From contig CAZVQU010000003.1 of the NCBI GenBank assembly GCA_964629655.1, positions 83,613 through 145,550 on the forward strand: a DNA stretch of 61,938 nucleotides. The letters are read 5' to 3'. The notes below the pieces were generated by a model. It did no database searches, was not told the origin of the DNA, and saw only the letters and a list, made by a program, of their open reading frames with translations. The translations under genes and the position numbers were made by a program. Shown piece after piece: positions 1 to 13,832 of the stretch; positions within the stretch are counted from its first letter, which is position 1; each line of letters opens with the position of its first letter. The stretch comes from an uncultured Planctomycetia bacterium (GTDB lineage Bacteria > Omnitrophota > Gorgyraeia > Duberdicusellales > 4484-171).

Positions 1-2
1 AA

Positions 3-1073
3 TTGGCTTTTTTTACGGGAAGGCAAGTTCTTCAGGAAGATTTAGGTATAAGAAATTTAAAGGACGCAATATTACAAGCAAAAATCGAGTGGATAAAAGC
101 AAAGAGGTACGACAAATTAGTTAATGTTGTTACCGCGGATTCTCCAATTCCATTCGATTTGAGAAAAATATGGCTTGATTTTTTTGTAAAAGAATTTGCA
201 ACCTATACAACTAAAGAAAGAGATGTTATTGATTGGCCTGAGAGTGGAAGAGGGAATAAAGACAAAATGATTCCCCCATCTTTTAAACCTCCTGGAACAG
301 GTTCAGCTGCTCCATTTAATCGATTACCGGGTCTGGGGACGGGGACAGCTAGTATTTTGGAAAAAATCAGGACTAGATGCTTGGATCGCAATTATTCATT
401 TTTATTTGGCAGTAGCGGGGATGAGGTGTTAAAAATTGACCTGGATCAATTAGTTAAGGAGTGGGTTGAAGGTCCGAATATAACAGTTCTTGATTTAAAT
501 GGAATTCCGTCTGATGTTGTTGATGTATCCGTTGGTGCTCTGTCGCGCTTATTTTTTGATTTATGGCGTTGGGGCAGGTCTGAAAAGGGTGTCGGTAAGA
601 ATCGGCCAATTTATTTAGTATTTGATGAGGCGCACTTATATTTAAGTGATTCAAAATATGGCTTTAATACCGGGTCCGCTATACGTGGTGTTACTCGTAT
701 ACTAAGAGAAGGAAGGAAATATGGAGTAGGATCTCTTATCGTAAGTCAGCGTCCATCAGATATTAATCCAACCATCTTTAGCCAAATTGGAACTATAATA
801 TCGTTGCGTCTTAATAATTCAAGCGATTTAAGCATTGTAAAAGGGAGTCTATCTGATAATCTTTCAAATATCTCAGAAATCATTCCATCTTTACGAACTG
901 GTGAAGCTTTGATTTCTGGGGAAGCGACGCCGCTACCACTGAGAGCACGTTTTCGGGAAATTAAAGATCGAAAGCATGGGGCAGACGCAAGTATTATAGG
1001 GACATGGAATGTAAGTCCATCTGTTGAGGGAATAAAAAAAGCAATTGAACTTTGGCGCAGTCGAGGTAATTAA
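3..1073 (+). CDS. HerA-like (DUF87-type) P-loop ATPase, C-terminal ~356 aa; 5' end lies outside the window
   Basis: ORF is open at the window edge. 'PIYLVFDEAHLYL' (Walker-B-like) and 'GRKYGVGSLIVSQRPSDI' match my recollection of HerA/DUF87 ATPases. Confidence 0.7.
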   Translation: MAFFTGRQVLQEDLGIRNLKDAILQAKIEWIKAKRYDKLVNVVTADSPIPFDLRKIWLDFFVKEFATYTTKERDVIDWPESGRGNKDKMIPPSFKPPGTGSAAPFNRLPGLGTGTASILEKIRTRCLDRNYSFLFGSSGDEVLKIDLDQLVKEWVEGPNITVLDLNGIPSDVVDVSVGALSRLFFDLWRWGRSEKGVGKNRPIYLVFDEAHLYLSDSKYGFNTGSAIRGVTRILREGRKYGVGSLIVSQRPSDINPTIFSQIGTIISLRLNNSSDLSIVKGSLSDNLSNISEIIPSLRTGEALISGEATPLPLRARFREIKDRKHGADASIIGTWNVSPSVEGIKKAIELWRSRGN

Positions 1074-1085
1074 GGAGGGGTAATT

Positions 1086-1304
1086 ATGCCTAGCGAATGG
1101 TATTATTTTGAAGGTAGTACTCGTGTAGAATGTGCAAGAGTTGACCGCGAAATAAATATTTTGGATTTAAAATTTGTAAATGGACCTATTTGTCGTTACG
1201 ACGGTGCGGCTGACCATTACGATGGAATTATTTCTTGTGAATCGCCCGGGAGATATGTTCATAGTAACCTTAAAGGGTGGAGTTATACAATTGTTTATGA
1301 ATAG
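1086..1304 (+). CDS. KTSC-domain small protein
   Basis: 72 aa with an aggagg RBS just upstream, 12 nt after the HerA stop. 'ILDLKFVNGPICRYDG...ESPGRYVHSNLKG' resembles the KTSC pattern (L.V.F..G..Y.Y......S.G.Y...I). Confidence 0.5.
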   Translation: MPSEWYYFEGSTRVECARVDREINILDLKFVNGPICRYDGAADHYDGIISCESPGRYVHSNLKGWSYTIVYE

Positions 1305-1374
1305 TAAATTCGAATGAATAACTCCAGGTACACAATAGTTAACTTCAATACACAACATTTGAGGGCCATTAATA

Positions 1375-2127
1375 ATGTCTGATTATTATACTCCAAAGAG
1401 AAGAAAAAATTTGTATGAATCTGGGGGCTCAACTCCTTTTAAGCTTAGCCGTTCAAAAATAGAACTTTTTATGCAATGCCCACAATGCTTTTATCTAGAT
1501 AGACGACTAGGTGTAGGTAGGCCGCCAAGTTATCCATATACGCTAAATAGTGCCGTAGATGCATTGCTTAAAAAGGAATTCGATATTTTAAGAGAAAATA
1601 ACGAGGCACATCCTTTGATGAAAAAATATGGCATAGATGCAGTGCCAGCGAAGCATAATATGCTTAAAGAATGGCGAAATAATTTTAAAGGTGTGCAGAC
1701 ATTGCATAAGCCAACAAATTTACTTGTGTTTGGGGCTATTGATGATTTATGGCAGAATTCTCAAGGTGAATATCTCGTAGTGGATTATAAGTCAACAAGT
1801 AAAAATGAAGAAATCAGTGCTCTTGATAAAGATTGGCAGATTACCTATAAAAGACAAATGGAAATATATCAATGGTTAGTTCGCCGGAATGAATTACCAG
1901 TATCTAATACAGGGTATTTTGTGTATTGTAACGGAAAAACGGATATAGATAAGTTTGATGGAAAGCTAGAGTTCGATCTTACATTAATTGCTTATAATGG
2001 AAGTGATAACTGGGTTGAAAATAAGATTAAAGAGATTTATGCATGCATTCAAAGCGAGGTTGTTCCCGAAGCAGATAGCGACTGTGATTTTTGTCGGTAT
2101 AGAGCAGCTGTTAAAGAAGTGACTTAA
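1375..2127 (+). CDS. PD-(D/E)XK nuclease, Cas4/RecB-like with putative Fe-S cysteines
   Basis: Motifs 'IDDL', 'VVDYKS' (D..D-x-K) and 'QMEIYQW' (QxxxY). Cysteines 'CPQC' near the N-terminus and 'CX12CDFC' at the C-terminus, as in Cas4-type nucleases. Confidence 0.7.
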   Translation: MSDYYTPKRRKNLYESGGSTPFKLSRSKIELFMQCPQCFYLDRRLGVGRPPSYPYTLNSAVDALLKKEFDILRENNEAHPLMKKYGIDAVPAKHNMLKEWRNNFKGVQTLHKPTNLLVFGAIDDLWQNSQGEYLVVDYKSTSKNEEISALDKDWQITYKRQMEIYQWLVRRNELPVSNTGYFVYCNGKTDIDKFDGKLEFDLTLIAYNGSDNWVENKIKEIYACIQSEVVPEADSDCDFCRYRAAVKEVT

Positions 2128-2144
2128 CGGATAACATTAATCCC

Positions 2145-2228
2145 TTCCTTTCCTCGGCAATCGCAGTCGTCCGGCTTCATCCCGATAAATCGGGATTACG
2201 CATCGTCCTTTATGCGCTTGCCTTCACC
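2145..2228 (+). repeat. ~80-bp structured direct repeat, copy A (partner at 5698-5775)
   Basis: Hand alignment to 5698-5775. It shares 'ttcctttc', 'tcggcaRtcgcagtcgtccggcttca' and 'tcgtcctttRtgcgMttgcctt'. An outer 10-bp stem pairs ggcaatcgca with tgcgcttgcc. The inner hairpin is atcccgat-aa-atcgggat. Confidence 0.65.
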
Positions 2229-2246
2229 CACCCAAAGCCAATCTAT

Positions 2247-2258
2247 GGGGGGGGGGGG
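2247..2258 (+). repeat. G12 homopolymer tract
   Basis: Twelve consecutive G counted directly, 14 nt upstream of the -35 box of the higB promoter, in an otherwise AT-rich context. Confidence 0.9.
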
Positions 2259-2272
2259 CGAGGAAAAAGCCC

Positions 2273-2301
2273 TTGACAATTTATTATACTTGTGTTATAT
2301 T
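2273..2301 (+). promoter_or_regulatory. sigma70-like promoter for the higB operon
   Basis: TTGACA (2273-2278), 17-nt spacer, TATATT (2296-2301). A small palindrome AATAC-aaaa-GTATT at 2317-2330 in the leader could be an operator. Confidence 0.55.
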
Positions 2302-2347
2302 ACCAATATGGGAGCAAATACAAAAGTATTATATTTAGTGAACACAT

Positions 2348-2635
2348 ATGAAACTATTAGGCAAGCAAATATTGCACAATTTCAAGGGGCAGTATGCCGA
2401 TGCTCGATCGCAAATTGAGTCATGGGAAGCAGAAGTCGAGGTAGCCCAATGGACCACGCCTCACGATCTAAAAAGTAGGTATCCAAAAGCGAGCCTTTTA
2501 GGAGATCAATTAGTGGTTTTTAATATTTGTGGAAATAGGTATAGATTGTTAACTCAGGTTAACTACAGGAATGGGATGGTATTGGTAAAGAAGATTGGCG
2601 CACATAAAGAATATGATAATTGGAATATAAAGTAA
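2348..2635 (+). CDS. higB: type II toxin HigB (RelE-fold mRNA interferase)
   Basis: 95 aa. 'VVFNICGNRYRLLTQVNY...VLVKKIGAHKEYDNW' parallels E. coli HigB 'YVFNVGGNELRVVAMVFF...IREVMTHKEYDFF'. Confidence 0.85.
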   Translation: MKLLGKQILHNFKGQYADARSQIESWEAEVEVAQWTTPHDLKSRYPKASLLGDQLVVFNICGNRYRLLTQVNYRNGMVLVKKIGAHKEYDNWNIK

Positions 2636-2643
2636 AGGTAAGT

Positions 2644-3855
2644 ATGCGTAGAATTAAAGTTATAAAAACTGAACAAGACTACCAGGACGCACTCAAATTA
2701 GTCGCGGAACTAATGAGTTGTGATCCAGATCCAGGCTCTGTTGAGGGAGAACAGCTCAGTCTTCTTAGTGCTCTTATTCAGGATTACGAAGCACGAGCAT
2801 TTCCAAAGACGCTTCCTAATCCCATTGAGGCGATTAAATTTAGAATGGAGCAAGCTGGTCTTAAGCCAGTAGATTTGGTACCTTATATTGGTAGCAGAAG
2901 TAGAGTGTCAGAGATTCTTTTAGGTAAACGCCAATTAACTCTTGATATGGTTAGATCATTGTCTGGTGGGCTTGGAATTCCTGCAGAGGTACTTATAAAG
3001 AAACCAGACATGGAAGAAAATTCGGAATATCAGAGTTGGGATAAGCGTCTAGTTACAGAAATGGAAGCACGGGATTATTTTGGTAAAGATTCAAAGAAAT
3101 ATAATAAAGTCGAACTCCTTAAAAATTTCTTTTCAATAATTGATTCTCCTGCACAACTTGTTGGAATGACAAGAAAATCTAGTTATAGATCTTCGCCGCT
3201 TACAGACAAGCATGCATTAGCTGCTTGGGCTGTTTGCGTCCTTAAAAAGGCTAAGAAAGTAAAAATATCAAAGAAGTATAAACACGGTATTATCGATCTT
3301 AATTTCATGCAAAAGCTGGTAAAGTTAAGTGTGAAGGAAAATAGTCCCATATTGGCTCGGGAGTACCTGGAAAAGTACGGAATCGTATTAATAATTGAGC
3401 CTCACTTTTCTAAAACTTACTTGGATGGGGCAGCTATTCTAATCAATAAAAATAATCCAATTATCGGCTTAACTCTTAGATATGACCGATTAGACAATTT
3501 TTGGTTTACATTAATGCATGAATTGGCGCACATTATACGACATTACGATAGTGGTATTAGTTTCTTTTACGATGAAATCGAAGGAATAAAAATAGTGGAT
3601 ATAGACGAGAAGGAACGAGAAGCTGATGCATTAGCCGAAGAGGCTATCTTGCCAAGAGCAAAATGGGAAGTCAGTCCAGCTAGACTCGTCCCTTCTTCTA
3701 TGGCGGCAAGTAGCCTAGCCCGGGAGTTAGGAGTGCATGTAGCTATTATTGCTGGTCAGATTAGACATAAAGGCAACAAGTACGTTTACCTGAATAAAAT
3801 CGTGAATGAAGCAAAGGTTCAAAAGTACTTTCCTAATGTGGTGTGGAAGAAATAA
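2644..3855 (+). CDS. HigA-like XRE HTH antitoxin fused to an ImmA/IrrE (COG2856, M78) zinc-peptidase domain
   Basis: The N-terminus 'GSRSRVSEILLGKRQLTLDMVRSLSGGLGIPAEVL' matches the HigA HTH. The C-terminus has 'FTLMHELAHIIRH' (HEXXH) and 'EREADALAEEAILP'. I chose the ATG at 2644 (AAAGG RBS, 8 nt after the higB stop) over the ORF-track start at 2620. Confidence 0.8.
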   Translation: MRRIKVIKTEQDYQDALKLVAELMSCDPDPGSVEGEQLSLLSALIQDYEARAFPKTLPNPIEAIKFRMEQAGLKPVDLVPYIGSRSRVSEILLGKRQLTLDMVRSLSGGLGIPAEVLIKKPDMEENSEYQSWDKRLVTEMEARDYFGKDSKKYNKVELLKNFFSIIDSPAQLVGMTRKSSYRSSPLTDKHALAAWAVCVLKKAKKVKISKKYKHGIIDLNFMQKLVKLSVKENSPILAREYLEKYGIVLIIEPHFSKTYLDGAAILINKNNPIIGLTLRYDRLDNFWFTLMHELAHIIRHYDSGISFFYDEIEGIKIVDIDEKEREADALAEEAILPRAKWEVSPARLVPSSMAASSLARELGVHVAIIAGQIRHKGNKYVYLNKIVNEAKVQKYFPNVVWKK

Positions 3856-3856
3856 T

Positions 3857-4972
3857 ATGCTTAGCTCAAAACATTACGTCCCAATATTGAAGTGGAAGCA
3901 TGCCGAGCAAAGTGCTTTAGCGGCATTAACAGATGAATATAAGGATCGAATATCACCGCTTATAGAGCTTGTTATGCCGAAACCAAAAAATTTATTTAAA
4001 GATGAAGAGAAGAAAATTAGAAAAACTCGAGAAGAGTTGTTCCAGGAATTAATTGCAGGGTTTAGAATAAAAAGAATTTTTAAGATTCCAGAGGAGATAG
4101 TTAAATCTTGGGGTGCTAGATTAGTCTTTATAGATTTTAGTCTACTGTACACCGTTGAATTAAAGGTGGAAAGCATAAAAAAAATTTTAGAAAAAGCGGC
4201 AGAGCTTGGTGCGAGACTCATACCTATTTTAAATCTAAGTGATAGCGATGGAATTAAAAAGGAAATCAGACAAGCCTTCAAAAAGCATGGCAATGGAATC
4301 TGTCTTCGGATTGTCTCAGGTGATTTAGAAGATATAAACAAACTCAACGATAAGCTTGCTGCTATTTTACAATATTTTGATACGAGCCGTGGTAATGTCG
4401 ACCTGTTAGTTGACCTTAAAGAGAATGGTGCAAATTATCGCAAATACCTCGATTTTAGTCAGGAAATCAAGGCTTTAGCTAAATGGCGAAATTTCATCTT
4501 TGCGTGTGGCACATTTCCAGAAGACTTATCTGAGTGTAGAGTTGATGAGCCCAAGCTTATTTCCAGGGTTGAATGGACGAGTTGGCTAGATATAAAAGAT
4601 GAGCAAATAAAAAGGGTTCCGACCTTTGCAGATTACACGATAAGAAACCCGATCTACAATGAAACACTACAGTTTTATCATGCTACCTCTAGTATCAAGT
4701 ATGCACTTGAAAGCGATTGGCTTATTCTCAAGGGCAAGGTAAAACAATTTAAAATATATTTAGCTAATGCAGCTCTGCTAGTAAAAAACGAAAAATTTTA
4801 TGGAGAAGATTTCAGTAGTGGGGATAAGTTTATTGCTGAAAAAGCAAAACACTTCGAAATTTATATTAGAAATCCGAATGTGAAAGGTACGGGCAATACT
4901 CCGATGTGGCTTACAGCACTTATAAACCACCACTTGACATTAACGGCATATCAGATCGCCAATCTCCCCTAG
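3857..4972 (+). CDS. Beta-family protein (PF14350-like; sce7725-like)
   Basis: The N-terminus 'HYVPILKWKHAEQSALAAL....RISPLIELV' matches my recollection of the Beta_protein/sce7725 signature. The ATG at 3857 lies 1 nt after the upstream stop. The ORF-track start at 3806 would overlap the upstream gene. Confidence 0.6.
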   Translation: MLSSKHYVPILKWKHAEQSALAALTDEYKDRISPLIELVMPKPKNLFKDEEKKIRKTREELFQELIAGFRIKRIFKIPEEIVKSWGARLVFIDFSLLYTVELKVESIKKILEKAAELGARLIPILNLSDSDGIKKEIRQAFKKHGNGICLRIVSGDLEDINKLNDKLAAILQYFDTSRGNVDLLVDLKENGANYRKYLDFSQEIKALAKWRNFIFACGTFPEDLSECRVDEPKLISRVEWTSWLDIKDEQIKRVPTFADYTIRNPIYNETLQFYHATSSIKYALESDWLILKGKVKQFKIYLANAALLVKNEKFYGEDFSSGDKFIAEKAKHFEIYIRNPNVKGTGNTPMWLTALINHHLTLTAYQIANLP

Positions 4973-5567
4973 AAATTAGCAATGCATTCCTTACTTTTTC
5001 TTTAAGGGTATCTGTATCTAATACATCAGCTAGTCTTTGGTATATGAATTCGCGTGGTTTAGAGCGTACCCCCTTTGCCTTACTTCGCTCTTCTAAAATT
5101 TGTAGTGCCTCTTCTTTCCATAGTAATCGCGCTATAGAAACTCCGATCTGATCTTGATTAGTTTCGGCTTCACGAATAGTTTGAAAAAATATCTCATGGT
5201 TTGCGTCAATTTTTGCAACAATAACACCCCACCAGTCAGGTACGATGTTTATTGCATTATATAAATGACGTTTTCCGACAACTAAAGTCAACTTATCGAA
5301 GACATCATTGAATTCGTTCATCTGTTCTGGTAATCGACTAAGTGTGTCACGATCACTTTTTATTTCATATCCATGCATAACACCATTAATAACAGCAATA
5401 TCTATTCTTGCTGTTCCGTGTCGCACACCTAATTCTTCAAAGATTTCTGCAGGGCGTTCGTTTTCTGAACGGTATTCTTCCTGATCTTTATCTAAAATAT
5501 TTCGGAGGGCTGCTCGTATGATTTTATCGGTTGTTGAAACCATTTTATGAAAAGTTTTTATTTTCAT
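4920..5567 (-). CDS. sce7726-family / MmcB-like PD-(D/E)XK fold protein
   Basis: 'ELGVRHGTARIDIAVINGVMHGYEIKSDRDTLSRLPEQ...VFDKLTLVVGKRHL' gives a D...E-I-K core. It matches my recollection of the sce7726 family signature. Its 3' end overlaps the Beta-family gene by 53 nt, convergently. Confidence 0.65.
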   Translation of the reverse strand: MKIKTFHKMVSTTDKIIRAALRNILDKDQEEYRSENERPAEIFEELGVRHGTARIDIAVINGVMHGYEIKSDRDTLSRLPEQMNEFNDVFDKLTLVVGKRHLYNAINIVPDWWGVIVAKIDANHEIFFQTIREAETNQDQIGVSIARLLWKEEALQILEERSKAKGVRSKPREFIYQRLADVLDTDTLKEKVRNALLISRGDWRSDMPLMSSGGL

Positions 5568-5697
5568 ATGTTAGGGTTAAGGAAACTATCTAAATATATT
5601 TTAGCATAAGTTAAGAGGATATAAAACAATTTTCTATATTAAATATGAACAAAGGAAATCGATTTTAATTTTTAATTTTGGGAGCACAATGCCAATT

Positions 5698-5775
5698 TTC
5701 CTTTCTCGGCAGTCGCAGTCGTCCGGCTTCAATCTTTCGGATTTCCGCTTCGTCCTTTGTGCGATTGCCTTTTTT
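5698..5775 (+). repeat. ~80-bp structured direct repeat, copy B (partner at 2145-2228)
   Basis: Same conserved flanks as copy A. The outer stem ggcagtcgca/tgcgattgcc is retained with different internal bases. The central part is divergent and shorter. Confidence 0.65.
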
Positions 5776-5909
5776 CATCCTGAAAGACTATAACACACCT
5801 TTTAGAATTTTTTCGCCGCCGTAAAATCCTGAGAGAAATCGAAGGGCCGATATAAAATAAAAGAATTATGGTTTAGGAAGTTTTTGTGAGGGAGAGGACG
5901 CTGATACCT

Positions 5910-5935
5910 CTTATCGGCGTACGTGAGCCGATAAG
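5910..5935. other. perfect 9-bp stem hairpin inside a GC-rich non-coding patch
   Basis: cttatcggc-gtacgtga-gccgataag read directly. It lies in the 5890-6100 patch, which I hand-counted at about 62% G+C over 5941-6100. Confidence 0.6.
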
Positions 5936-6183
5936 TGGGAAGAAAAGCCGAATCGTATGCTATTGGCATCGCCGCGAAGCGAGCGGCCTAGCGAGCGCCA
6001 AGTGAGGACGAGCCCCAGCGAGGACGAACGAAGCCTACACCAATCACCAAGCCCACCGTAGCCGACGTTCAGGAGGTGAAGGCGGGCGGGGGCATCATTC
6101 AAGACTGTGCTAGCCTATCTAGTTCTGTCTGGAATACAGTAAAAAGGAAGGGTTTGGAGAATTTGTAAAGAAGGAACCAAGGG

Positions 6184-6249
6184 TCAGCCGAATGTGCGGA
6201 TGTAGATTTTTTTCGCCGAATCTTGAAAATTCTTTGATTTTTTTGACAT
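6184..6249 (-). pseudogene. decoy copy of the miaB start (leader plus codons 1-21, then TGA)
   Basis: The reverse complement is identical to miaB 11014-11078. It encodes MSKKSKNFQDSAKKIYIRTFG and then reaches a stop formed with the first base outside the repeat. Confidence 0.85.
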
Positions 6250-6360
6250 TTTTGATTTTTTTTCGCCTCCGAAAAGAGAAAATTAAATGGGCCAAAAAGA
6301 GAAACAGAGATTCTTTTCTCAAGCAAAGCCCCGCCGATGGCTGGGGCGATTTTGATGTTT
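6185..6360 (-). repeat. 176-bp inverted repeat, left copy (IR-L)
   Basis: Exact reverse complement of 10903-11078, checked by hand in 10-nt blocks with no mismatch. Identity breaks at 6184/11079 and at 6361/10902. Confidence 0.95.
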
Positions 6361-6477
6361 CCGTTCTATTCGCCTATCCGGCTCACAGTCCGTGCCCCAA
6401 CCTTTGGTTGTTGCTAAAAAGCAGCCGAAGAGAGAAGAACCCCACCCCCAAGATTTATTATCCCCCAAACAATCATC

Positions 6478-6506
6478 TTGACAAAAACTGTCAGAAAGTG
6501 TAGTAT
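6478..6506 (+). promoter_or_regulatory. sigma70-like promoter of the element operon
   Basis: TTGACA (6478-6483), 17-nt spacer, TAGTAT (6501-6506), 10 nt upstream of the HTH gene ATG. Confidence 0.6.
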
Positions 6507-6515
6507 AGCAGTGTT

Positions 6516-6692
6516 ATGAAAAGATATAATGCGAGTCAACTTGCCCGAGAGCTATGTATCGCAAGGCAAACACTTTACTATTGGATAGAGAAGGGATGGG
6601 TAAAGCCTAAACGCGATTATCGCAAGTATCCTGTCTTCACTGAGGAAGATGTCAAAAAAATAAAAGCGTGGCGAGATAAATTAGAGGAGTAA
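6516..6692 (+). CDS. MerR/excisionase-like HTH protein (58 aa), possible recombination directionality factor or regulator
   Basis: Not in the ORF track because it is under 60 aa. My translation is MKRYNASQLARELCIARQTLYYWIEKGWVKPKRDYRKYPVFTEEDVKKIKAWRDKLEE. This fits a MerR-type N-terminal HTH pattern (G.l.P.R....R.Y...D). Confidence 0.55.
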   Translation: MKRYNASQLARELCIARQTLYYWIEKGWVKPKRDYRKYPVFTEEDVKKIKAWRDKLEE

Positions 6693-6695
6693 AAA

Positions 6696-7403
6696 ATGGT
6701 AACTTGTGTAATTACAGGATTAATTCTTACTTTGATAGCAACCGTACTTTTATTCGTTGGCTTAAAACATCTTCCTTGGAAGGCACAAACATGGAATGGG
6801 TCCAGTGGAAAAGAAAAAAGTTTTTTTAAATCAAGGCAAGCTTATTCGACAATCGGTTTTGGATTACTATTTTTTGGATTCTTATTGCAGCTGATCGGCG
6901 TGGTCGGTGATGCAAGCTCGGATTTAGGAAGCGAAATTAAAATAGGTATTATATTCATGGCTGTGACGATACTTTTTTTGATAGTTTATATTGCTATTAA
7001 GGGGATTACAGATTGGAGAATAATCGCTGGTTTGATATTGGTAGTTTTGGCATTGCCTGTTTTGCAATTGTTTAATTCAGGCAAGATTAGTGATCTTTTT
7101 CTTCAATATGGCGATAAAAAGATCAGGCTTGTCAACTCAAAATTACAGGAGATAAAGGTAATAGAGTCAAAGATAAAGAATATTTCAGAATCGGTTGCAA
7201 AACTCATAGCTGAAAATCAAGCCTGGACGATGCGTTTTGAGCCTGAAGGTGGAGCATTACGACGAATGCAAAATGCGAAACAAGAAATTAATGTTTTTTT
7301 AGATGAGGTAGGGACAACTAAAGAGCGCCGCGCGGAAATATTGGGTATTTTAAATGAAATGATTGAGCACGATATAAAAGAGGAAGAGAAGAAAAAGGAA
7401 TGA
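6696..7403 (+). CDS. hypothetical membrane protein (about 4 TM helices plus a C-terminal coiled-coil/charged tail)
   Basis: Hydrophobic segments at roughly aa 4-23, 52-70, 82-100 and 108-125. The C-terminal half is K/E-rich. The start lies 3 nt after the HTH gene stop. I recognise no family. Confidence 0.5.
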   Translation: MVTCVITGLILTLIATVLLFVGLKHLPWKAQTWNGSSGKEKSFFKSRQAYSTIGFGLLFFGFLLQLIGVVGDASSDLGSEIKIGIIFMAVTILFLIVYIAIKGITDWRIIAGLILVVLALPVLQLFNSGKISDLFLQYGDKKIRLVNSKLQEIKVIESKIKNISESVAKLIAENQAWTMRFEPEGGALRRMQNAKQEINVFLDEVGTTKERRAEILGILNEMIEHDIKEEEKKKE

Positions 7404-8107
7404 AAGTAGCTGTTTTTGCGGTTCAATATAAGATTAAATTTAATGAGTATCCTGCAAGAATTAACAAAGAGTTTCGTGACGGCTATAGAAATCCCTTGTT
7501 TGGCAAGCTAGTAGAACGCGCGTGTTCTGAAAAGGTTAATCTTGTGGTGTTGCCTGGTGGATTTTTTCGCACGGATTATCCTGACAAAATCGCTAAATAC
7601 TTAGAAAAACATCCCCCTAAAGTCAATGTGCTGGTAGGACGTGATAATGCTTCTGGTTCTAAATTAGAAGTTTTAATGGTTAGTCCAAGTGGTATGATTC
7701 GGAAAGAAATAGTTGAAGTTTACGACCAATACAAAAAGGCTAGAAATAATAAAAGTAAGCGAAAAGTTATTCTTCAGAGTATATGCGACAGACGTTTTCA
7801 AATTGATAATGAAATGTACACTGTTTTTTCTTGTGGCGATGTGCTTATTCCTGAGATACGAAAAGCGTCGCCCCTTACTTATTGTAAAGCTGCTTTTGTC
7901 TTGGCGCATTATACAGCCCGGAGGTTTTCATCTTCAATGCGAAAAATAGACATACCTATATTTCTTTCGCATCATCTTAAACATCCATGGATTTCACAAA
8001 ACTACGCGTATAATGGAAAATTCAAAAAAGATGACCCTAGACCTTTGAAGAGAATTTGCGGTGAATTTCAAGGATTAAAATGGGTCGCTAGGATTTATTC
8101 GGTTTAA
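7400..8107 (+). CDS. hypothetical protein, weakly carbon-nitrogen-hydrolase-like
   Basis: Overlaps the upstream stop by 4 nt (ATGA). 'MKVAVFAVQ....VNLVVLPGGFFRTDY' and 'TVFSCGDVLIPE' resemble nitrilase-superfamily strands. The usual Glu of 'PE' is Gly here. Confidence 0.35.
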   Translation: MKVAVFAVQYKIKFNEYPARINKEFRDGYRNPLFGKLVERACSEKVNLVVLPGGFFRTDYPDKIAKYLEKHPPKVNVLVGRDNASGSKLEVLMVSPSGMIRKEIVEVYDQYKKARNNKSKRKVILQSICDRRFQIDNEMYTVFSCGDVLIPEIRKASPLTYCKAAFVLAHYTARRFSSSMRKIDIPIFLSHHLKHPWISQNYAYNGKFKKDDPRPLKRICGEFQGLKWVARIYSV

Positions 8108-8152
8108 AAAAGACGAAATTGATGAGTGGATGAGGAGTAAAAGGAGAGATAA

Positions 8153-8749
8153 GTGATAGCAATTGCTATAATTAGTTTGTTGTTGGGTGTGATAGGCGTG
8201 GTTTTTACTGTCCCAAAATCACGCCATTATGTCCTGAGAAAGTTTAGTTTCTTGAACCCTAAGCTTAGTGCAAATTTTTCCATTTTAGAAAAAAAGACTG
8301 TAGTTCGAGGTCTGGAGATAAATCTAAATTTTGGGAATGGTTCCTTTAATAAAGTGGAGCAGTGTTTCTTTTTAGAATTTATTTTTTACAATAATACAGG
8401 AAGTAAAGTTCATATTTCAAATTTAAGAATAGCAGATGTATCTTCATTGTTGAAAATCAATCCAGAGGCGGATAAAAATATAAATGATAATTCTTACTCT
8501 CTAAAATTTATAGAGGAGGTAGGGTTTTTGAGGGGAGCTTATTCCAAAAGGGAAATAACCATAGACACTAATGCTAAGGTCAAAACGGGGATCCCTTTAT
8601 CAAATGAATACACGGAAAGTGATATGAAAACTTTGATTAAAAAACTAAAACAGCATACTAACAAGCCTAATGAGATAAAATATTTTGTTTTAAAATATTA
8701 TGCCAAGATAGGGGTAGACAAGTCCTTAGAAGTCGAATTTAATTATTAA
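8153..8749 (+). CDS. hypothetical protein with an N-terminal TM anchor
   Basis: GTG start. 'MIAIAIISLLLGVIGVVFTV' is a hydrophobic helix, followed by a ~175-aa soluble part with no motif I recognise. Confidence 0.45.
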   Translation: MIAIAIISLLLGVIGVVFTVPKSRHYVLRKFSFLNPKLSANFSILEKKTVVRGLEINLNFGNGSFNKVEQCFFLEFIFYNNTGSKVHISNLRIADVSSLLKINPEADKNINDNSYSLKFIEEVGFLRGAYSKREITIDTNAKVKTGIPLSNEYTESDMKTLIKKLKQHTNKPNEIKYFVLKYYAKIGVDKSLEVEFNY

Positions 8750-8859
8750 AAGGGGTTATTGCAATTACCCCGTTTGTGTAGATAAGGATATTAAAGCGAT
8801 TAATGAATGGTGCAATGCACTAAACGAGAAATAAAGTAATATATCGTTAGGTAAATTAT

Positions 8860-9429
8860 ATGAGTATAGACATTCGTATAAAAGTTAGGAATTGTATAGA
8901 AGTTATAAAAGAAAAGTTCGAGAATAATCACAATTTATTCTTGAGTGAAACAGATGTTGTTTGTCAGCTATACGCAGAGTTGTTAAAGGAAAGTGATTTT
9001 AGGCGAGTTCGTAGAACACGCTCTGGTCAGAGTACGATAGCATTGCACACCGAGGTTCCATTCTTCTCACGAGAATTGAGGGGAAGAGAAATCCCTATAC
9101 TAGATAGGTGGGTAGATATTGCAATACTGGATCAGTCTAAGATGACTTTTAATAGAAACGATTTTCGTCTAAGTAAATACTCGTCTAAGATTTATCGCTT
9201 TATAGAGGAAAAGTGTTGCATTGAAGTCAAATTAAATTCGATCGATTCTAAACGAAAAAGCCTAGATGGCATTGAGAGAGATTTAAGGAAGTTAAAGCTC
9301 TTAAATTCAGAAATAGCATTCATGTTGGCCCTAGACAAAAGAGCTCATTTGAATTCTAATGATATAGAAAGCTTAGAAAGCAAATATCCCGACGTGGAAG
9401 TTATATATGGAACACCAAGTAGCCATTAA
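8860..9429 (+). CDS. hypothetical protein with a PD-(D/E)XK-like motif arrangement
   Basis: 'ALHTEV', 'RWVDIAILD' and 'CCIEVKLN' give an E...D...E-x-K pattern. The 3' end overlaps the recombinase start by 23 nt. Confidence 0.4.
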   Translation: MSIDIRIKVRNCIEVIKEKFENNHNLFLSETDVVCQLYAELLKESDFRRVRRTRSGQSTIALHTEVPFFSRELRGREIPILDRWVDIAILDQSKMTFNRNDFRLSKYSSKIYRFIEEKCCIEVKLNSIDSKRKSLDGIERDLRKLKLLNSEIAFMLALDKRAHLNSNDIESLESKYPDVEVIYGTPSSH

Positions 9430-11086
9430 AGTTGCAATTTATATTCGTGTTTCGACTGAATATCAAGCGAAGGAAGGATATTCGCTTGAGGTGCAGAGAG
9501 AATATCTTGAGTCTTTTGCCAAGCGGGAAGGGTATGAAGTTTTTAAGGTTTATTGCGATGAGGGTATAAGCGCATATTCTACACATCGCCCTGCCTTACA
9601 ACAGTTACTTGCCGATGCAAAGGCTAAAAAGTTTGACCTTGTGTTGGTTCATAAAATTGATCGTTTCAGTCGTAACCTTAAAGACTTGCTTATGCTGGTT
9701 GATGAGTTATCTTTTTGTGGTGTTGGCTTCAAATCTGCAACTGAACCGTTTGACACAACGATATCAGCCGGAAAGCTGATGTTTCAGCAGCTTGGCTCTT
9801 TTGCTGAGTTTGAGCGTAATAGAATTGCAGAGCGTGTATTTCCAGGCATGGTAAAAGGTGTTCAGCTTGGCAATTGGCAAGGTGCACGATTTGTGCCGTT
9901 TGGTTATAGTTACAGTAAAGCCAAGAAGCTGTTAGAAATTGAGGAAAGGGAGGCTAATATCGTTAAGCTGGTTTACACGATGTATCTCTCCGGCAAAAGC
10001 TCTCGCGATATAGCTGCCTATCTTGACAGGAAAGGATACAAGACAAGAGCAGGCAAGCAATTTTACAACAAGTTTATTTGCGATGTACTTAAAAACCAGA
10101 TATACACTGGTAAAATTGTGTGGAATAAAAAACACTATGACAAGAATCAGAAGACCAAGAAGCATTACAAGTATGTCAGGAACGATCCTTCAAAGATTCT
10201 TATTGCACAGGGAAAGCATAAACCAATAATTGACGAAGATGATTTTATGCAAGTGCAGAAATTATTAGCAGATAAGAAGATAACATGGCGGCCACGAATA
10301 AGAAATAAAGAGTATCTTTTAACAGGTTTGCTTACTTGTGCGAAGTGTAGTCATAAATACAATGGTGTGTCTTCAATATCAAACCACCGAACGAATAAGA
10401 AGAAACGCTGGTATCGTTGTTCTGGACCTTATGCAAGCCATATCAAGTGTACAAATAGGTCAGTGAAGGCAGAGGATGTCGAGCCAGAGGTCACGAAGAT
10501 AGTTGCCCAGTTGGTTCAGAATGAGCGCTTAAAACAGAGCCGATGGACGACAGGGACTTTGCAAAAAGAGGCAAATTTCCCAGTTTTTGCTAAAAACGCA
10601 AAAACAGACCTTTCTGAGATTAAAGATAATCTAAAAATCAACCAAGAAAAGCAGTTAAAGCTTACCGACGCTTATCTGGAAAATTTGCTTGGTGAAGATG
10701 TATATCGTGATAAAATGGATGCTTTGCGCAGGGATGAGGACGAGATCAAAAAACTCCTTGCAGACATTGAGCTTCAAGGGATAGAGCGGGAACGCTCTGA
10801 GGGCTATGTTAACAGAGTAAAAGACTTTCTTGACGGCTACGATGACAGCAAAGAAAAAATAGATTTTGCTACCAAGAGAGAGCTGACTGGGCTGCTTTTT
10901 AAAAACATCAAAATCGCCCCAGCCATCGGCGGGGCTTTGCTTGAGAAAAGAATCTCTGTTTCTCTTTTTGGCCCATTTAATTTTCTCTTTTCGGAGGCGA
11001 AAAAAAATCAAAAATGTCAAAAAAATCAAAGAATTTTCAAGATTCGGCGAAAAAAATCTACATCCGCACATTCGGCTGCCAGATGA
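9407..11086 (+). CDS. large serine recombinase (resolvase domain + recombinase domain + zinc ribbon + coiled coil); the functional 3' end is uncertain
   Basis: 'VAIYIRVSTEYQ' holds the catalytic Ser, with 'HKIDRFSRN' downstream. The Cys cluster is 'CAKCSHKYNG...YRCSG...CTN'. The last 184 nt of the ORF run through IR-R and overlap the miaB start by 73 nt. Confidence 0.85.
   Translation: MEHQVAIKVAIYIRVSTEYQAKEGYSLEVQREYLESFAKREGYEVFKVYCDEGISAYSTHRPALQQLLADAKAKKFDLVLVHKIDRFSRNLKDLLMLVDELSFCGVGFKSATEPFDTTISAGKLMFQQLGSFAEFERNRIAERVFPGMVKGVQLGNWQGARFVPFGYSYSKAKKLLEIEEREANIVKLVYTMYLSGKSSRDIAAYLDRKGYKTRAGKQFYNKFICDVLKNQIYTGKIVWNKKHYDKNQKTKKHYKYVRNDPSKILIAQGKHKPIIDEDDFMQVQKLLADKKITWRPRIRNKEYLLTGLLTCAKCSHKYNGVSSISNHRTNKKKRWYRCSGPYASHIKCTNRSVKAEDVEPEVTKIVAQLVQNERLKQSRWTTGTLQKEANFPVFAKNAKTDLSEIKDNLKINQEKQLKLTDAYLENLLGEDVYRDKMDALRRDEDEIKKLLADIELQGIERERSEGYVNRVKDFLDGYDDSKEKIDFATKRELTGLLFKNIKIAPAIGGALLEKRISVSLFGPFNFLFSEAKKNQKCQKNQRIFKIRRKKSTSAHSAAR
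10903..11078 (+). repeat. 176-bp inverted repeat, right copy (IR-R), containing the miaB leader and codons 1-21
   Basis: See IR-L. The copy ends after the second base of the Cys22 codon of miaB. Confidence 0.95.
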
Positions 11087-12180
11087 ACGATCGCGACTCG
11101 GAAGCTCTGCTAGGGTTATTTGTGGATAAGGGGTATTTGGTAGCTAAAAGTGCCCAAGAGGCTGATCTAGTTTTGGTTAACACCTGCTCAGTGCGTGCTC
11201 ATGCTGAAGATAGGGCAAGGTCTTATCTGGGAAGTTTAAGGGAAAAGGGAAAGGGTCCTTCGACTTCGCTCAGGACCAATAAGACCAAGAACCACGTTCT
11301 TGGTCTTATTGGCTGCATGGCGGCTAACAAAGGAAAAGAGATATTTGAAAGGATGTCGCATATTGATTTAGTTTGCGGGCCGGCTAGTTTTGCTAAGATA
11401 TTCGGGTATGTAGAGGAAATTCGAGACAAGAGAAAAAGAATAATTGATATAAATGATAATAAGCGCAACGAAGAACTTTATCAGTCTTCTTATAGGGTTG
11501 ATGAAGGCAAGGCTCAAGTAGTTATTTCAACCGGGTGTTCTAATTTTTGCTCTTATTGTGTTGTTCCTTATGTGCGTGGAAAATTGCGTCTGCGTAAGCC
11601 TTTGGATGTAGTTGATGAGGTTAAACGAAATATTTCCTCAGGGATTAAGAACATCACCCTCCTAGGGCAGAATGTTAACGATTACAAGTATAAATCAACG
11701 GATTTTGTCAAACTATTAGGAACAATAGCCGATATTGAGGGCTTAGAGTCTTTGGATTTTATCACTTCTCAACCAAGAAATACCTCAAAAGTATTGTTTA
11801 CTCTTATCGAAAAATCGCCTAAAATAAGAAGACACCTGCATCTTCCTTTTCAGTCCGGTTCTAATCGGATGCTGGAGTTGATGAATAGAGGTTACACCAG
11901 AGAGAAATACTTACAACTTGTAGATGACTATAAAAAAATCGTTGGCGGAACCTTAAGCACAGACGTTATTGTCGGTTTTCCCTCAGAGAGTGAGGAAGAT
12001 TTTAAGCAGACTAAGGATATACTAGAGAAGGTTAGGTTTAGCCATGCTTTTATCTTTAAGTATTCTCGGCGAAGAGCAGCTAAGAGTTTTGAGTTGGCTG
12101 ATGATGTAGCAAAGGACGTAAAAGCGAAGCGTCATAAAATATTGTTAGATTTACAGAAGAAAATATCAATGGGTGAGTAA
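11014..12180 (+). CDS. miaB: MiaB-family radical SAM methylthiotransferase (short form, no obvious TRAM domain)
   Basis: 'IRTFGCQMN' belongs to the N-terminal Fe-S domain. 'GCSNFCSYCVVPYVRG' is the radical SAM CX3CX2C motif. At 388 aa it is short for the family. Confidence 0.8.
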   Translation: MSKKSKNFQDSAKKIYIRTFGCQMNDRDSEALLGLFVDKGYLVAKSAQEADLVLVNTCSVRAHAEDRARSYLGSLREKGKGPSTSLRTNKTKNHVLGLIGCMAANKGKEIFERMSHIDLVCGPASFAKIFGYVEEIRDKRKRIIDINDNKRNEELYQSSYRVDEGKAQVVISTGCSNFCSYCVVPYVRGKLRLRKPLDVVDEVKRNISSGIKNITLLGQNVNDYKYKSTDFVKLLGTIADIEGLESLDFITSQPRNTSKVLFTLIEKSPKIRRHLHLPFQSGSNRMLELMNRGYTREKYLQLVDDYKKIVGGTLSTDVIVGFPSESEEDFKQTKDILEKVRFSHAFIFKYSRRRAAKSFELADDVAKDVKAKRHKILLDLQKKISMGE

Positions 12181-12181
12181 T

Positions 12182-12910
12182 ATGAAAATAATTAGTTTAG
12201 TTCTGGTTTTTGTTTTTTTAATATCTTTCTCGGGTTATTCTTTTTCAATAGCCGATGTTCACAGAGAGTATCTCTACGGGAACTATGACGATGCTATAAG
12301 AATAGCTAAGGATTTGCGCGAGAGCGGTGAGGCACTTTACTATTTAGGTTTATCTTATACAAAGATAGGCGAGTATGCAAAAGCTCGTACATACTTTCGA
12401 AGAATCCTGCGACGCTTTCCAGATTCTTCATTCTATGAATCGAGCATGGTTAAAATATCTGACACATACTTTCTTGAGAAGAATTATCCAAGGGCTAAAG
12501 AACTTTATCATGAGATAGAGCAGAGGTCTTCCTCGGACGATTTTTCACCGGTAGTGTTATTAAGGTTGGCTCAGATTGCAAGCCGTCAGGGCAAGTGGGA
12601 CGAGAAGTCAAAGTATATAAAACGCATAAAGTCGAAGTACCCCAAGTCTAGTGAGATGAAGTTTATCAGAGTCTTAGAAGCCTTGGGAGATTTCTTCACT
12701 ATACAAGTTGGTGCTTTTAGCGTGAAGAAGAACGCTCGTGATCTAACTGAAGAGCTAAAGGGTGAGTACTCCCCGTATATTGTAAAAGAAAAAAAAGGCA
12801 ATTATCTTCTTTATAAGGTACGTGTCGGTAGATTCAAGAATCGCTATGATGCCCAAGGAGTCTCGTCCAAATTACTTGATGAAGGATACCCTGCCCGAAT
12901 CTATCCCTAG
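12182..12910 (+). CDS. TPR-repeat / SPOR-domain protein with a signal anchor
   Basis: The C-terminus 'FTIQVGAFSVKKNARDL...YLLYKVRVGRFKNRYDAQ' is SPOR-like. TPR-like repeats lie in the N-terminal half. I preferred the ATG at 12182 over the GTG at 12173. Confidence 0.6.
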   Translation: MKIISLVLVFVFLISFSGYSFSIADVHREYLYGNYDDAIRIAKDLRESGEALYYLGLSYTKIGEYAKARTYFRRILRRFPDSSFYESSMVKISDTYFLEKNYPRAKELYHEIEQRSSSDDFSPVVLLRLAQIASRQGKWDEKSKYIKRIKSKYPKSSEMKFIRVLEALGDFFTIQVGAFSVKKNARDLTEELKGEYSPYIVKEKKGNYLLYKVRVGRFKNRYDAQGVSSKLLDEGYPARIYP

Positions 12911-12917
12911 ATAAGTT

Positions 12918-13832
12918 ATGAGTAAGATTATCTTCATTGTTGGACCTACCGCCACAGGAAAGACCGAGGCCAGTTTTTTACTAGCTCGAAAACTTCAGGC
13001 CGAAATCGTCTCGGCAGACGCTATGCTTGTTTATCGGGAGCCAAGAATTATAACCTCAAAGCCTCCTCTGTATATTCTCGGGCAGGTAAAGCATCATTTC
13101 GTAGACGTGATTTCGGCAAAGAAAAGCTATGGTGTATTTGATTACTTTCTCTCTGCTTCTAAGACAATAGAGGAGTTAGTTAATAAAGGCATCTCGGTTA
13201 TTGTTTGTGGAGGTAGCGGTCTTTATATAAAAGCGATTTTAGATGGTATATTCGCGGGGCCGGGCAAGGATGAGGCCTTAAGAAAAAAACTGGCTGAAAC
13301 AGCCCAAGCCCAGGGTAATCAGTATTTGTACCGTAAATTAGAAGAAGTAGATTCTGAAACCGCAAAAAAGCTCTCTTCTAATGATTTGAGGAGAGTAATC
13401 AGGGCTTTAGAGGTTTATTCCCTAAGCGGTCGGCCTTTATCTGAAAAGAAGAAAGAGGCAACTGGCCTTTGGCCAAAGCTAGGAATTGAGATTTTTGGCT
13501 TAAGGCTTAAACGCAGGAATCTTTATCAGCGGATAAATAAGAGAACCGATGAAATGTTTAGCCAAGGGGCGGTAGATGAGGTTAGAGATTTATTAACTAT
13601 TGAATTAAGTCTTACTGCCAGGAAAATACTTGGTATAAGCGAGATAGAGAGATTTTTGAAGGGTGATTTAACCCAGGAGGAATCCAAAGAGATTATAAAG
13701 AAGAATACTCGTAACTTTGCTAAGCGACAAGTTACCTGGTTTAGAAAAGATAAACGTATTCAGTGGATAGACGTAGATGAATTGAGCTCTGAACAGGTAG
13801 CAGATGACATATTAAGGAGAAGTCATGACTAA
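12918..13832 (+). CDS. miaA: tRNA dimethylallyltransferase
   Basis: '[15 protein letters not shown]' P-loop and 'RRVIRALEV', with typical length. Confidence 0.85.

Follow-up and report, generated by a model that had tools for sequence, protein, structure and literature searches.

The recombinase cassette upstream of miaB

The window analysed here is a 61,938-nt stretch of contig CAZVQU010000003.1 (assembly GCA_964629655.1, positions 83,613 to 145,550) from an uncultured bacterium placed by GTDB in the phylum Omnitrophota. In this window, the methylthiotransferase gene miaB is preceded by a cassette that encodes a small helix-turn-helix (HTH) protein, four proteins of unassigned function and a large serine recombinase (LSR), and that is bounded by two inverted copies of a sequence hereafter called R (Table 1). 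The two copies are exact reverse complements of each other over 176 nt (100% identity), and their arms lie 4542 nt apart. They form the sole inverted repeat of at least 35 nt in the whole window, where the only other repeat is a direct one of 35 nt (2145-2179 and 5697-5731).

Table 1. Features of the miaB-associated cassette and its left arm in the window
Feature	Position	Strand	Remarks
h element	5697..5771		Hairpin-like motif of ~75 nt, marking the distal end of X; second copy at 2145-2224, 80-89% identical
X arm	5772..6184	-	GC-rich non-coding module (GC 0.48-0.52 vs about 0.36 nearby), conserved in relatives
R1, left repeat copy	6185..6360	-	Recombinase 3' end, surrogate miaB start (21 codons), TGA, then X
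Control region with P_R	6361..6515	+	Sigma-70-like promoter (TTGACA 6478-6483, 17 nt, TAGTAT 6501-6506) ahead of the HTH-to-recombinase operon
HTH gene	6516..6692	+	58 aa, MerR/excisionase type, first in the module; Pfam MerR_1, E = 3.1e-07
Four cargo open reading frames	6696..9429	+	6696-7403, 7400-8107, 8153-8749 and 8860-9429; function unassigned; the content of this slot varies between relatives
Large serine recombinase	9407..11086	+	559 aa as integrated here; Pfam Resolvase, Recombinase, Zn_ribbon_recom
Invariant 28-nt motif	10891..10918	+	GCTGCTTTTT/AAAAACATCAAAATCGCC, straddling the inner edge of R
R2, right repeat copy	10903..11078	+	Recombinase C-terminal coding in frame 1; in another frame, ribosome-binding region, miaB codons 1-21 and TG
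miaB	11014..12180	+	UPF0004 and Radical_SAM; first 21 codons and all upstream signals from the element; junction TG/C of Cys22

The right copy comprises the 111 nt upstream of the miaB ATG, the first 21 codons and 2 nt. Its last bases are TTC GGC TG, and the C that follows makes up the Cys22 codon of TFGCQMN. The left copy, read on the minus strand, is followed by an A (TG/A, with the slash marking the junction here and below), which gives a TGA stop in the miaB frame. A first-pass annotation of this DNA had described the perfect repeats, the make-up of the right copy up to Cys22 and the TGA formed at the left boundary; our recomputation of the complement, coordinates and codons agrees with it on each of these. 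It had also described a one-strand unit between the repeats. The promoter, HTH gene, four open reading frames (ORFs) and recombinase gene are indeed so arranged, but the recombinase ORF continues through the right repeat. Its view of the left copy as an outward-facing decoy start falls short, since the sequence beyond the left repeat, X, belongs to the system and is not host DNA.

The recombinase has the domain composition of LSRs, with matches to Resolvase (PF00239, E = 6e-40), Recombinase (PF07508, 1.2e-22) and Zn_ribbon_recom (PF13408, 2.3e-11), and it carries a catalytic serine motif, IYIRVSTEYQ (residues 11-20). Its ORF crosses all 176 nt of R2: the last 58 codons lie in R and are followed by A-R-stop, 8 nt into miaB. 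Alignment with the SPbeta recombinase SprA/YokA (9dxh, E = 3.5e-22) pairs residues 56-528 of the query with residues 65-536 of the chain; as it extends to residue 528, the structural C-terminus of the enzyme must be encoded by the first ~30 codons of R. The N-terminal coding region of the window recombinase (9407-9470) includes an unusual 5-residue extension. Look-ups of the exact MiaB and recombinase proteins of the window returned no record. The window MiaB is only 388 aa long, lacks a TRAM domain and is overlapped at its end by the next ORF. MiaB has 436-450 aa in three related loci (L068, L076 and L103; relatives are designated by locus number), and in L090, the closest relative, where tblastn matches residues 1-388 and the next gene follows immediately, it appears equally short.

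The 58-aa HTH protein is a candidate regulator or directionality factor. In most relatives with a long enough contig, tblastn detects a homologue of its gene ahead of the recombinase gene. Searches of the four cargo ORFs with Pfam and PADLOC gave no matches, and only the first of them recurs, in L085. P_R is found at the same place in all 28 relatives compared, against 3 expected, and is the only conserved promoter upstream of miaB; no sigma-70-like promoter was found inside R. The window also has a leftward promoter-like site at 6484-6457. Divergent promoters as a family trait were rejected, with such a site present at 7 of 28 loci against 3.6 expected.

X adjoins the outer edge of R1, and X-like sequence adjoins an R copy in about 40 loci. 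Read from 6184 down to 6102 on the minus strand, its first 83 nt extend the recombinase frame as DPWFLLYKFSKPFLFTVFQTELDRLAQS, with a stop at 6101-6099. The C-terminus of the recombinase thus depends on the junction: past R, the frame has 3 codons and then a stop beside miaB, where ATG-AAY always creates TGA, and a conserved tail of ~25 codons (DPWFVLYKLSKPFFFTAFQVELAAL) beside X. Codon-position entropy of this tail, computed over 23 distinct arms in the recombinase frame, is 12.9/8.6/19.3, the third position being the most variable, from which we conclude that the tail is translated and selected. It is present in the database proteins P0003 and P0008. X is rich in hairpins, and at least one of them displays covariation, of a local kind only. 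Rfam has no match, at its gathering or at a permissive threshold, in X, be it that of the window or those of 10 relatives, and a thermodynamically stable RNA was unsupported (z = 0.36 and -1.16), with no strand bias in 23 sequences. In relatives, the h element marks the far end of X beside unrelated host or cargo genes, and in L003 and L084 it adjoins the control region; it may represent the boundary of a cassette or else an extragenic repeat element.

Family census and junction architecture

More than 1000 homologues of the recombinase were found, the closest of which are 60-90% identical and mostly come from metagenome-assembled genomes of Omnitrophota. Metagenomes, GTDB genomes and viral contigs yielded 162 related loci, and protein look-up 2 more; the census below covers 147 non-redundant loci. 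The recombinase gene is directly followed by miaB in 84 of them and by something else in 25, and the contig ends after it in the remaining 38. Many related contigs break inside the repeat, as expected of a true repeat. An inverted repeat of 140-210 nt of its own surrounds the HTH-to-recombinase module in 68 loci, and inverted junction modules are present in 47 of the 84 loci with miaB directly downstream. The hosts belong to Omnitrophota, Elusimicrobia, Margulisbacteria/Saganbacteria/WOR-1 and Auribacterota, and members include one in a complete, curated WOR-1 genome (L125) and others on 0.4-0.8-Mb contigs (L094, L154). The smallest units (repeat, HTH gene, recombinase gene, repeat) measure ~2.1 kb, and module length in relatives ranges from about 2.1 to 8.2 kb. 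Copies of R within a locus are mostly 98-100% identical; between loci, R differs by 20-30%.

Recombinase, R and X are far better conserved than the flanking host genes. Compared with the window, L006 has a recombinase that is 84% identical next to MiaB, MiaA and HflX proteins with only 46, 41 and 45% identity, respectively. In L090, whose host is closer to that of the window, the values are 78% for the recombinase, 71% for MiaB and 77% for MiaA. Similarly, the elements of L070 and L074 are 93% identical and their host miaB genes only 68%. These comparisons of sequences demonstrate that the unit made of recombinase, R and X is mobile and has spread horizontally. Nothing suggests a phage, as the search of viral contigs yielded only two distant relatives (41-46% identity). 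L028 and L103 have classical direct junctions, in the order native short miaB start/X, control region, HTH-to-recombinase segment, R/miaB, a layout that fits LSR integration at the miaB Cys codon. Native-looking miaB starts were seen only at the attL side of these two loci and downstream of a cassette in L007.

The direct-junction locus L076 (10001-11670) has a recombinase gene split by a frameshift and appears to be decaying; its left flank harbours toxin-antitoxin-type cargo, AbiE-like and HEPN/nucleotidyltransferase-like as judged from ORF translations. L096 (5657-11968) has an inverted repeat of 480 nt (77% identity), which takes in some 120 codons from another miaB-like 5' region, and its cassette is hence flanked by two methylthiotransferase 5' ends. 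An HTH-recombinase pair with 51-53% identity occurs in the closed Omnitrophota genome of Candidatus Velamenicoccus archaeovorus LiM (L112; NZ_CP019384, 658764-680353), with neither an adjacent miaB nor an inverted repeat within 10 kb.

In 34 distinct R copies, codon-position entropy has the periodicity of the recombinase frame in the inner and middle parts of R and that of the miaB frame in the outer 65 nt, the latter in the recombinase-side copies. Read in both frames, R completes the recombinase gene and restarts miaB: the inner two thirds code for the final structural portion of the recombinase, the outer 65 nt for a surrogate MiaB N-terminus. The miaB start ORF is intact in the HTH-side copy of R in 6 of the 7 loci examined. 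Where the repeats have decayed (L009, L070), only the miaB-facing copy keeps the ATG; where they are intact, both copies do. R also contains a GC-rich imperfect palindrome, GCCCCGCCGATGGCTGGGGC (6328-6347 and 10916-10935 in the window), with a terminator-like score on the strand that enters the cassette from outside; in the recombinase frame, it codes for the conserved IAPAIGGA stretch.

The outer edge of R reads AC-N-TTCGG-N-TG in every locus and is followed by one of a few partner arms. These are miaB (YCARATGAA, encoding C-Q-M-N), an mtaB-like gene joined at the equivalent Cys codon (TG/TAAGGTAAACCAATACGAG, L043), X-type sequence (ACCCTTGG...CTACAAG, as at window position 6184) and Y-type sequence (GCCGATGG...TTATAG). 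The junction falls at the same miaB codon in every relative with miaB on that side. The same recombinase family occurs at the equivalent Cys codon of mtaB-like methylthiotransferase genes (F-G-C-K-V-N-Q-Y-E) in L043 (5319-5600), L036 and L095, where R supplies a matching surrogate N-terminus. The outer edge contains a TTCGG-N-TG-N-CCGAT dyad, and TG is the likely junction for integration into miaB and mtaB. At the inner edge, the 28-nt motif is the most invariant stretch of the region, synonymous positions included, and repeat identity begins exactly at its T5/A5 step in 33 of 49 distinct loci.

Upstream of the cassette, positions 1-5567 of the window form a defence island. It comprises genes for a HerA-like ATPase (3-1073) and a Cas4-like nuclease (1375-2127), a HigB-like small ORF (2348-2635), matches to the PD-Lambda-2 components B (2620-3855, E = 1e-143) and C (3806-4972) and, on the minus strand, a 'cll'-like gene (4920-5567). 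The two h copies of the window (2145-2224 and 5697-5771) bracket the PD-Lambda-2 block.

Alternative configurations and competing explanations

Three pairs of nearly identical elements differ in what follows R. L043 and L046 are 100.000% identical over 2949 nt, comprising the recombinase gene and R, after which the target gene follows in L043 and x-X in L046; the x-X of L046 is the left module of L043 inverted, with 100% identity. L086 and L020 (99.96% over 5468 nt) and L019 and L005 (98-99% identical) show the same difference between target gene and X. Between the two R copies of L086 there are three differences, none of them more than 12 nt from the outer end, and the recombinase-linked R of L020 has the X-linked variants. 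Because L020 keeps all three, the exchange in this pair took place deeper inside R and not at the TG; crossover at the outer TG was accordingly rejected for this pair, the three variants, at most 12 nt from it, staying with X or with miaB.

Further loci reveal other rearrangements. L163 and L007 are 99.67% identical over 10.2 kb, and every mismatch lies after the inner-edge motif. Past this motif, L007 continues with an R of its own, a Y arm and, ahead of miaB, three cargo genes, and L163 with a window-like R (95%), x and X. The comparison identifies this pair as a recent module swap, whose exchange point is placed by the alignment within the 28-nt invariant motif. The L007 cassette (11650-13300) appears array-like; one of its three genes codes for a GIY-YIG protein, and the miaB gene there has its own divergent start, GTGAAAGTCTTTTTGAAAACCTATGGGTG/TCAGATG. 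In L041, the repeat copies are similar (86%) over only 74 nt, their outer ~90 nt belonging to different R subfamilies, which again places an exchange inside R. Lastly, miaB lies on the HTH side in L070 and on the recombinase side in its relative L074; the L070 assembly is unambiguous, as its repeat copies are only 84% identical.

The reading that we favour, with a probability of roughly 0.58, is that of an invertible and exchangeable LSR cassette anchored at the conserved Cys codon of methylthiotransferase genes, in most cases miaB, at times an mtaB-like gene. Of the two R copies, one follows the recombinase gene, and the second, inverted copy lies upstream of the cassette promoter and abuts X. 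Recombination inside R would flip the HTH-to-recombinase cassette or swap the attached arm, with the LSR core, R and the 5' end of the target gene surviving every exchange unbroken. Whichever copy of R faces miaB would provide its first 21 codons. In the present orientation, miaB would be read from P_R through the recombinase gene and the recombinase would have its short form; after a flip, the recombinase would acquire the X-encoded tail of ~25 aa and miaB would lose the read-through from P_R. The presumed catalyst of the exchange is the LSR, perhaps acting together with the HTH protein, and not RecA. Inversion would also take place in the population from which the window comes, and exchange would have a regulatory effect. 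Three models of how the inverted-repeat form originates or transposes, namely excision at a palindromic core, a circle with an R/h joint and inversion of an attL block, were rejected, each predicting junctions that are not observed.

The first-pass annotation had offered two proposals, an invertible LSR segment with very long repeats or an element carrying a replacement miaB 5' end at both termini, and had suggested comparing related genomes for the flipped state. That comparison turned up the near-identical pairs joined to the target gene or to X, as well as L070 and L074. The replacement 5' end is borne out, as R outlasts the flanking miaB in conservation and its outer 65 nt are in the miaB frame. 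So is its presence at both termini, given the intact HTH-side start ORFs and the use of either orientation towards miaB. The invertible segment stands in part: the family-wide architecture and the pairs L086/L020, L043/L046 and L019/L005, which differ in the way that inversion predicts, speak for it, but they come from relatives, and the catalyst is conjectural.

Several observations weigh against an inverting LSR cassette. The alternative configurations, including the three near-identical pairs, which come from different samples, were all obtained from short-read assemblies, in which a perfect repeat longer than a read may give wrong graph paths; either orientation towards miaB is seen in relatives, and assembly-robust evidence of orientation comes only from L070, a different host. 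The contig of L163 in which X follows recombinase and R arose by module addition, with X on both sides, and not by a flip. The leftward promoter site is not conserved and so gives no account of miaB expression in the flipped state. The inner-edge motif lacks the dyad symmetry typical of serine-recombinase sites, and its 28-nt identity could equally serve RecA. The motif RVSTEDQ, present in 26 of 27 aligned relatives, reads RVSTEYQ in the window recombinase, with a Tyr in place of a nearly invariant Asp; this substitution or the N-terminal extension may point to reduced activity, or else the start may be mis-called. Finally, a search beyond X for a remnant of the native miaB 5' end found none, which leaves entry into a naive host unaccounted for.

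Part of this evidence would also fit a tentative and less probable alternative, in which the inverted R-X unit is a fossil attachment copy left by nested or tandem integrations at a miaB hot spot, with occasional gene conversion that maintains its identity, rare and accidental RecA-driven exchange between the 176-nt homologies and neither a role for the LSR nor a function. Arrays and remnants are common, as in L007 (R/Y, three cargo genes and an intact miaB) and in L068 and L108 with their extra R or X copies; the recombinase of L076 is frameshifted, and L163 has gained a second module. The exchange points lie in the longest identical stretches, as homologous recombination predicts, mismatches between copies are concentrated in the outer part, though at distances that vary, the inner edge is devoid of dyad symmetry, and miaB is on the right in 84 loci and on the left in 3. 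Such fossils would not be expected to share the same two sharp repeat edges across five phyla, with recombinase ORFs that are nearly all intact, or a 28-nt motif that is invariant at synonymous sites. The X tail is under coding selection though it is translated only when R abuts X, and cargo-free 2.1-kb units (repeat, HTH gene, recombinase gene, repeat) persist in many genomes. A chimeric left repeat, assembled by following the de Bruijn graph through sequence that really occurs just once, upstream of miaB, is very improbable. The window is a metagenome contig, its perfect repeat exceeds typical read length and many related contigs break inside the repeat, but the same layout was independently recovered from dozens of samples and pipelines, including the curated complete genome L125. 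Diverged copies (77-95% identity in L003, L009, L036, L063 and L070) cannot be graph artefacts, and the unique sequences that follow the two copies, X and the control region, are conserved in relatives.

It also appears unlikely, to a degree between these two alternatives, that R sites are the attachment modules of a shufflon- or integron-like platform, on which sites of alternating orientation surround the recombinase module and its neighbours and the LSR captures, inverts and exchanges cargo or defence cassettes. L068 (4359-10975) carries a restriction-modification cassette between inverted R.x-X modules beside the recombinase module, L052 (1-6260) a restriction-modification block between inverted X copies, and L007 a recombinase-less cassette between R/Y and miaB; the module swap between L163 and L007 and the left flank of the window, a defence island punctuated by two h motifs, fit this platform as well. 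The flanked restriction-modification cassettes of L068 and L052 suggest further segments open to inversion or exchange. Such multi-site loci are only a handful, however. Multi-segment cassette arrays were seen in L068, L052, L108 and L007 and none within the window, whose 62 kb hold no further copy of R or X; X abuts housekeeping genes in L007, L009 and L002, and cassette mobility is hypothetical. A broader version, in which R would be a universal attachment module in alternating orientation, the LSR would flip its own module and swap arms or cassettes, and the tail on the X or Y arm would gate activity or stability, is similarly doubtful. If true, a platform with tail gating would be a natural self-reporting machine for LSR inversion and exchange, mechanistically unlike attP x attB integrases because its substrates and products are identical.

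Relation to known systems and significance

The LSR cassette shares the Resolvase, Recombinase and Zn-ribbon architecture with classical LSR elements (SPbeta SprA, skin SpoIVCA, A118 Int and phiC31 Int). Like them, it has one conserved insertion point in a protein-coding gene, a small HTH partner and, in L028 and L103, relatives with direct attL/attR-type junctions. Unlike them, the window has inverted junction modules that share 176 nt, rather than direct ones with a core of a few bp; R overlaps the recombinase 3' end, and the element repairs its target gene instead of splitting it. The classical attP x attB to attL + attR directionality is not obviously applicable, because the products are identical in sequence to the substrates.

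Invertases of the Hin/Gin/Cin/Pin type also lie inside an inverted-repeat segment, act on equivalent sites and alter reading into a flanking gene. They have about 190 aa with a C-terminal HTH and 26-bp repeats, whereas the enzyme here is a 559-aa LSR and the repeats of 140-210 nt code for parts of two genes in a unit that is horizontally mobile and miaB-specific. The cassette thus differs from the Hin type, and a Fis/enhancer module was not evident, though none was searched for. In the integration-dependent immunity of mycobacteriophages, attP reportedly lies inside the repressor gene. There too, crossover occurs inside an ORF and the recombination state sets the C-terminus of a protein; here, the ORF is that of the recombinase itself, which ends with A-R-stop or with a conserved hydrophobic tail of ~25 aa. 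Shufflons and integrons likewise combine a recombinase module with cargo arrays and recurring sites, and some segments of the present family lie between inverted sites (L068, L052). They use tyrosine recombinases and short sfx or folded attC sites and do not repair an essential gene, and array behaviour is only hinted at here.

A closer parallel for the target gene is provided by dusA-specific islands with tyrosine integrases, which swap the 5' end of a tRNA-modification gene for island sequence (Farrugia et al. 2015, PMC4482086) and whose cargo frequently consists of defence or restriction-modification systems. In the window, R similarly supplies a new 5' end and expression signals. Those islands differ in their tyrosine recombinase, the cassette enzyme being a serine recombinase, and in having direct-repeat junctions, no inverted duplicate end and no overlap with the integrase gene. 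Literature searches found no paper linking large serine recombinases with miaB, Omnitrophota or invertons. The first-pass statement that no described system has this layout agrees with these searches, except that the concept of an island replacing a 5' end is known from dusA. The LSR cassette family at miaB is widespread and apparently undescribed.

LSRs are valued for genome engineering because attP x attB recombination is unidirectional. In this large natural family, the two sites share an identical half, of 176 nt in the window, in inverted orientation, which makes each product a substrate in its turn. Should the enzyme catalyse the exchange, the cassette would be a natural LSR 'flip-flop' with a built-in read-out, the recombinase C-terminus varying with the junction. 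One DNA module both ends the recombinase gene and restarts the interrupted host gene, and through this dual-purpose R the host miaB-miaA-hflX operon depends on the element. The family marks a previously unnoticed hot spot for integration and defence islands in poorly studied phyla (Omnitrophota, Elusimicrobia, Margulisbacteria), and it offers hundreds of orthologous enzyme/site sets.

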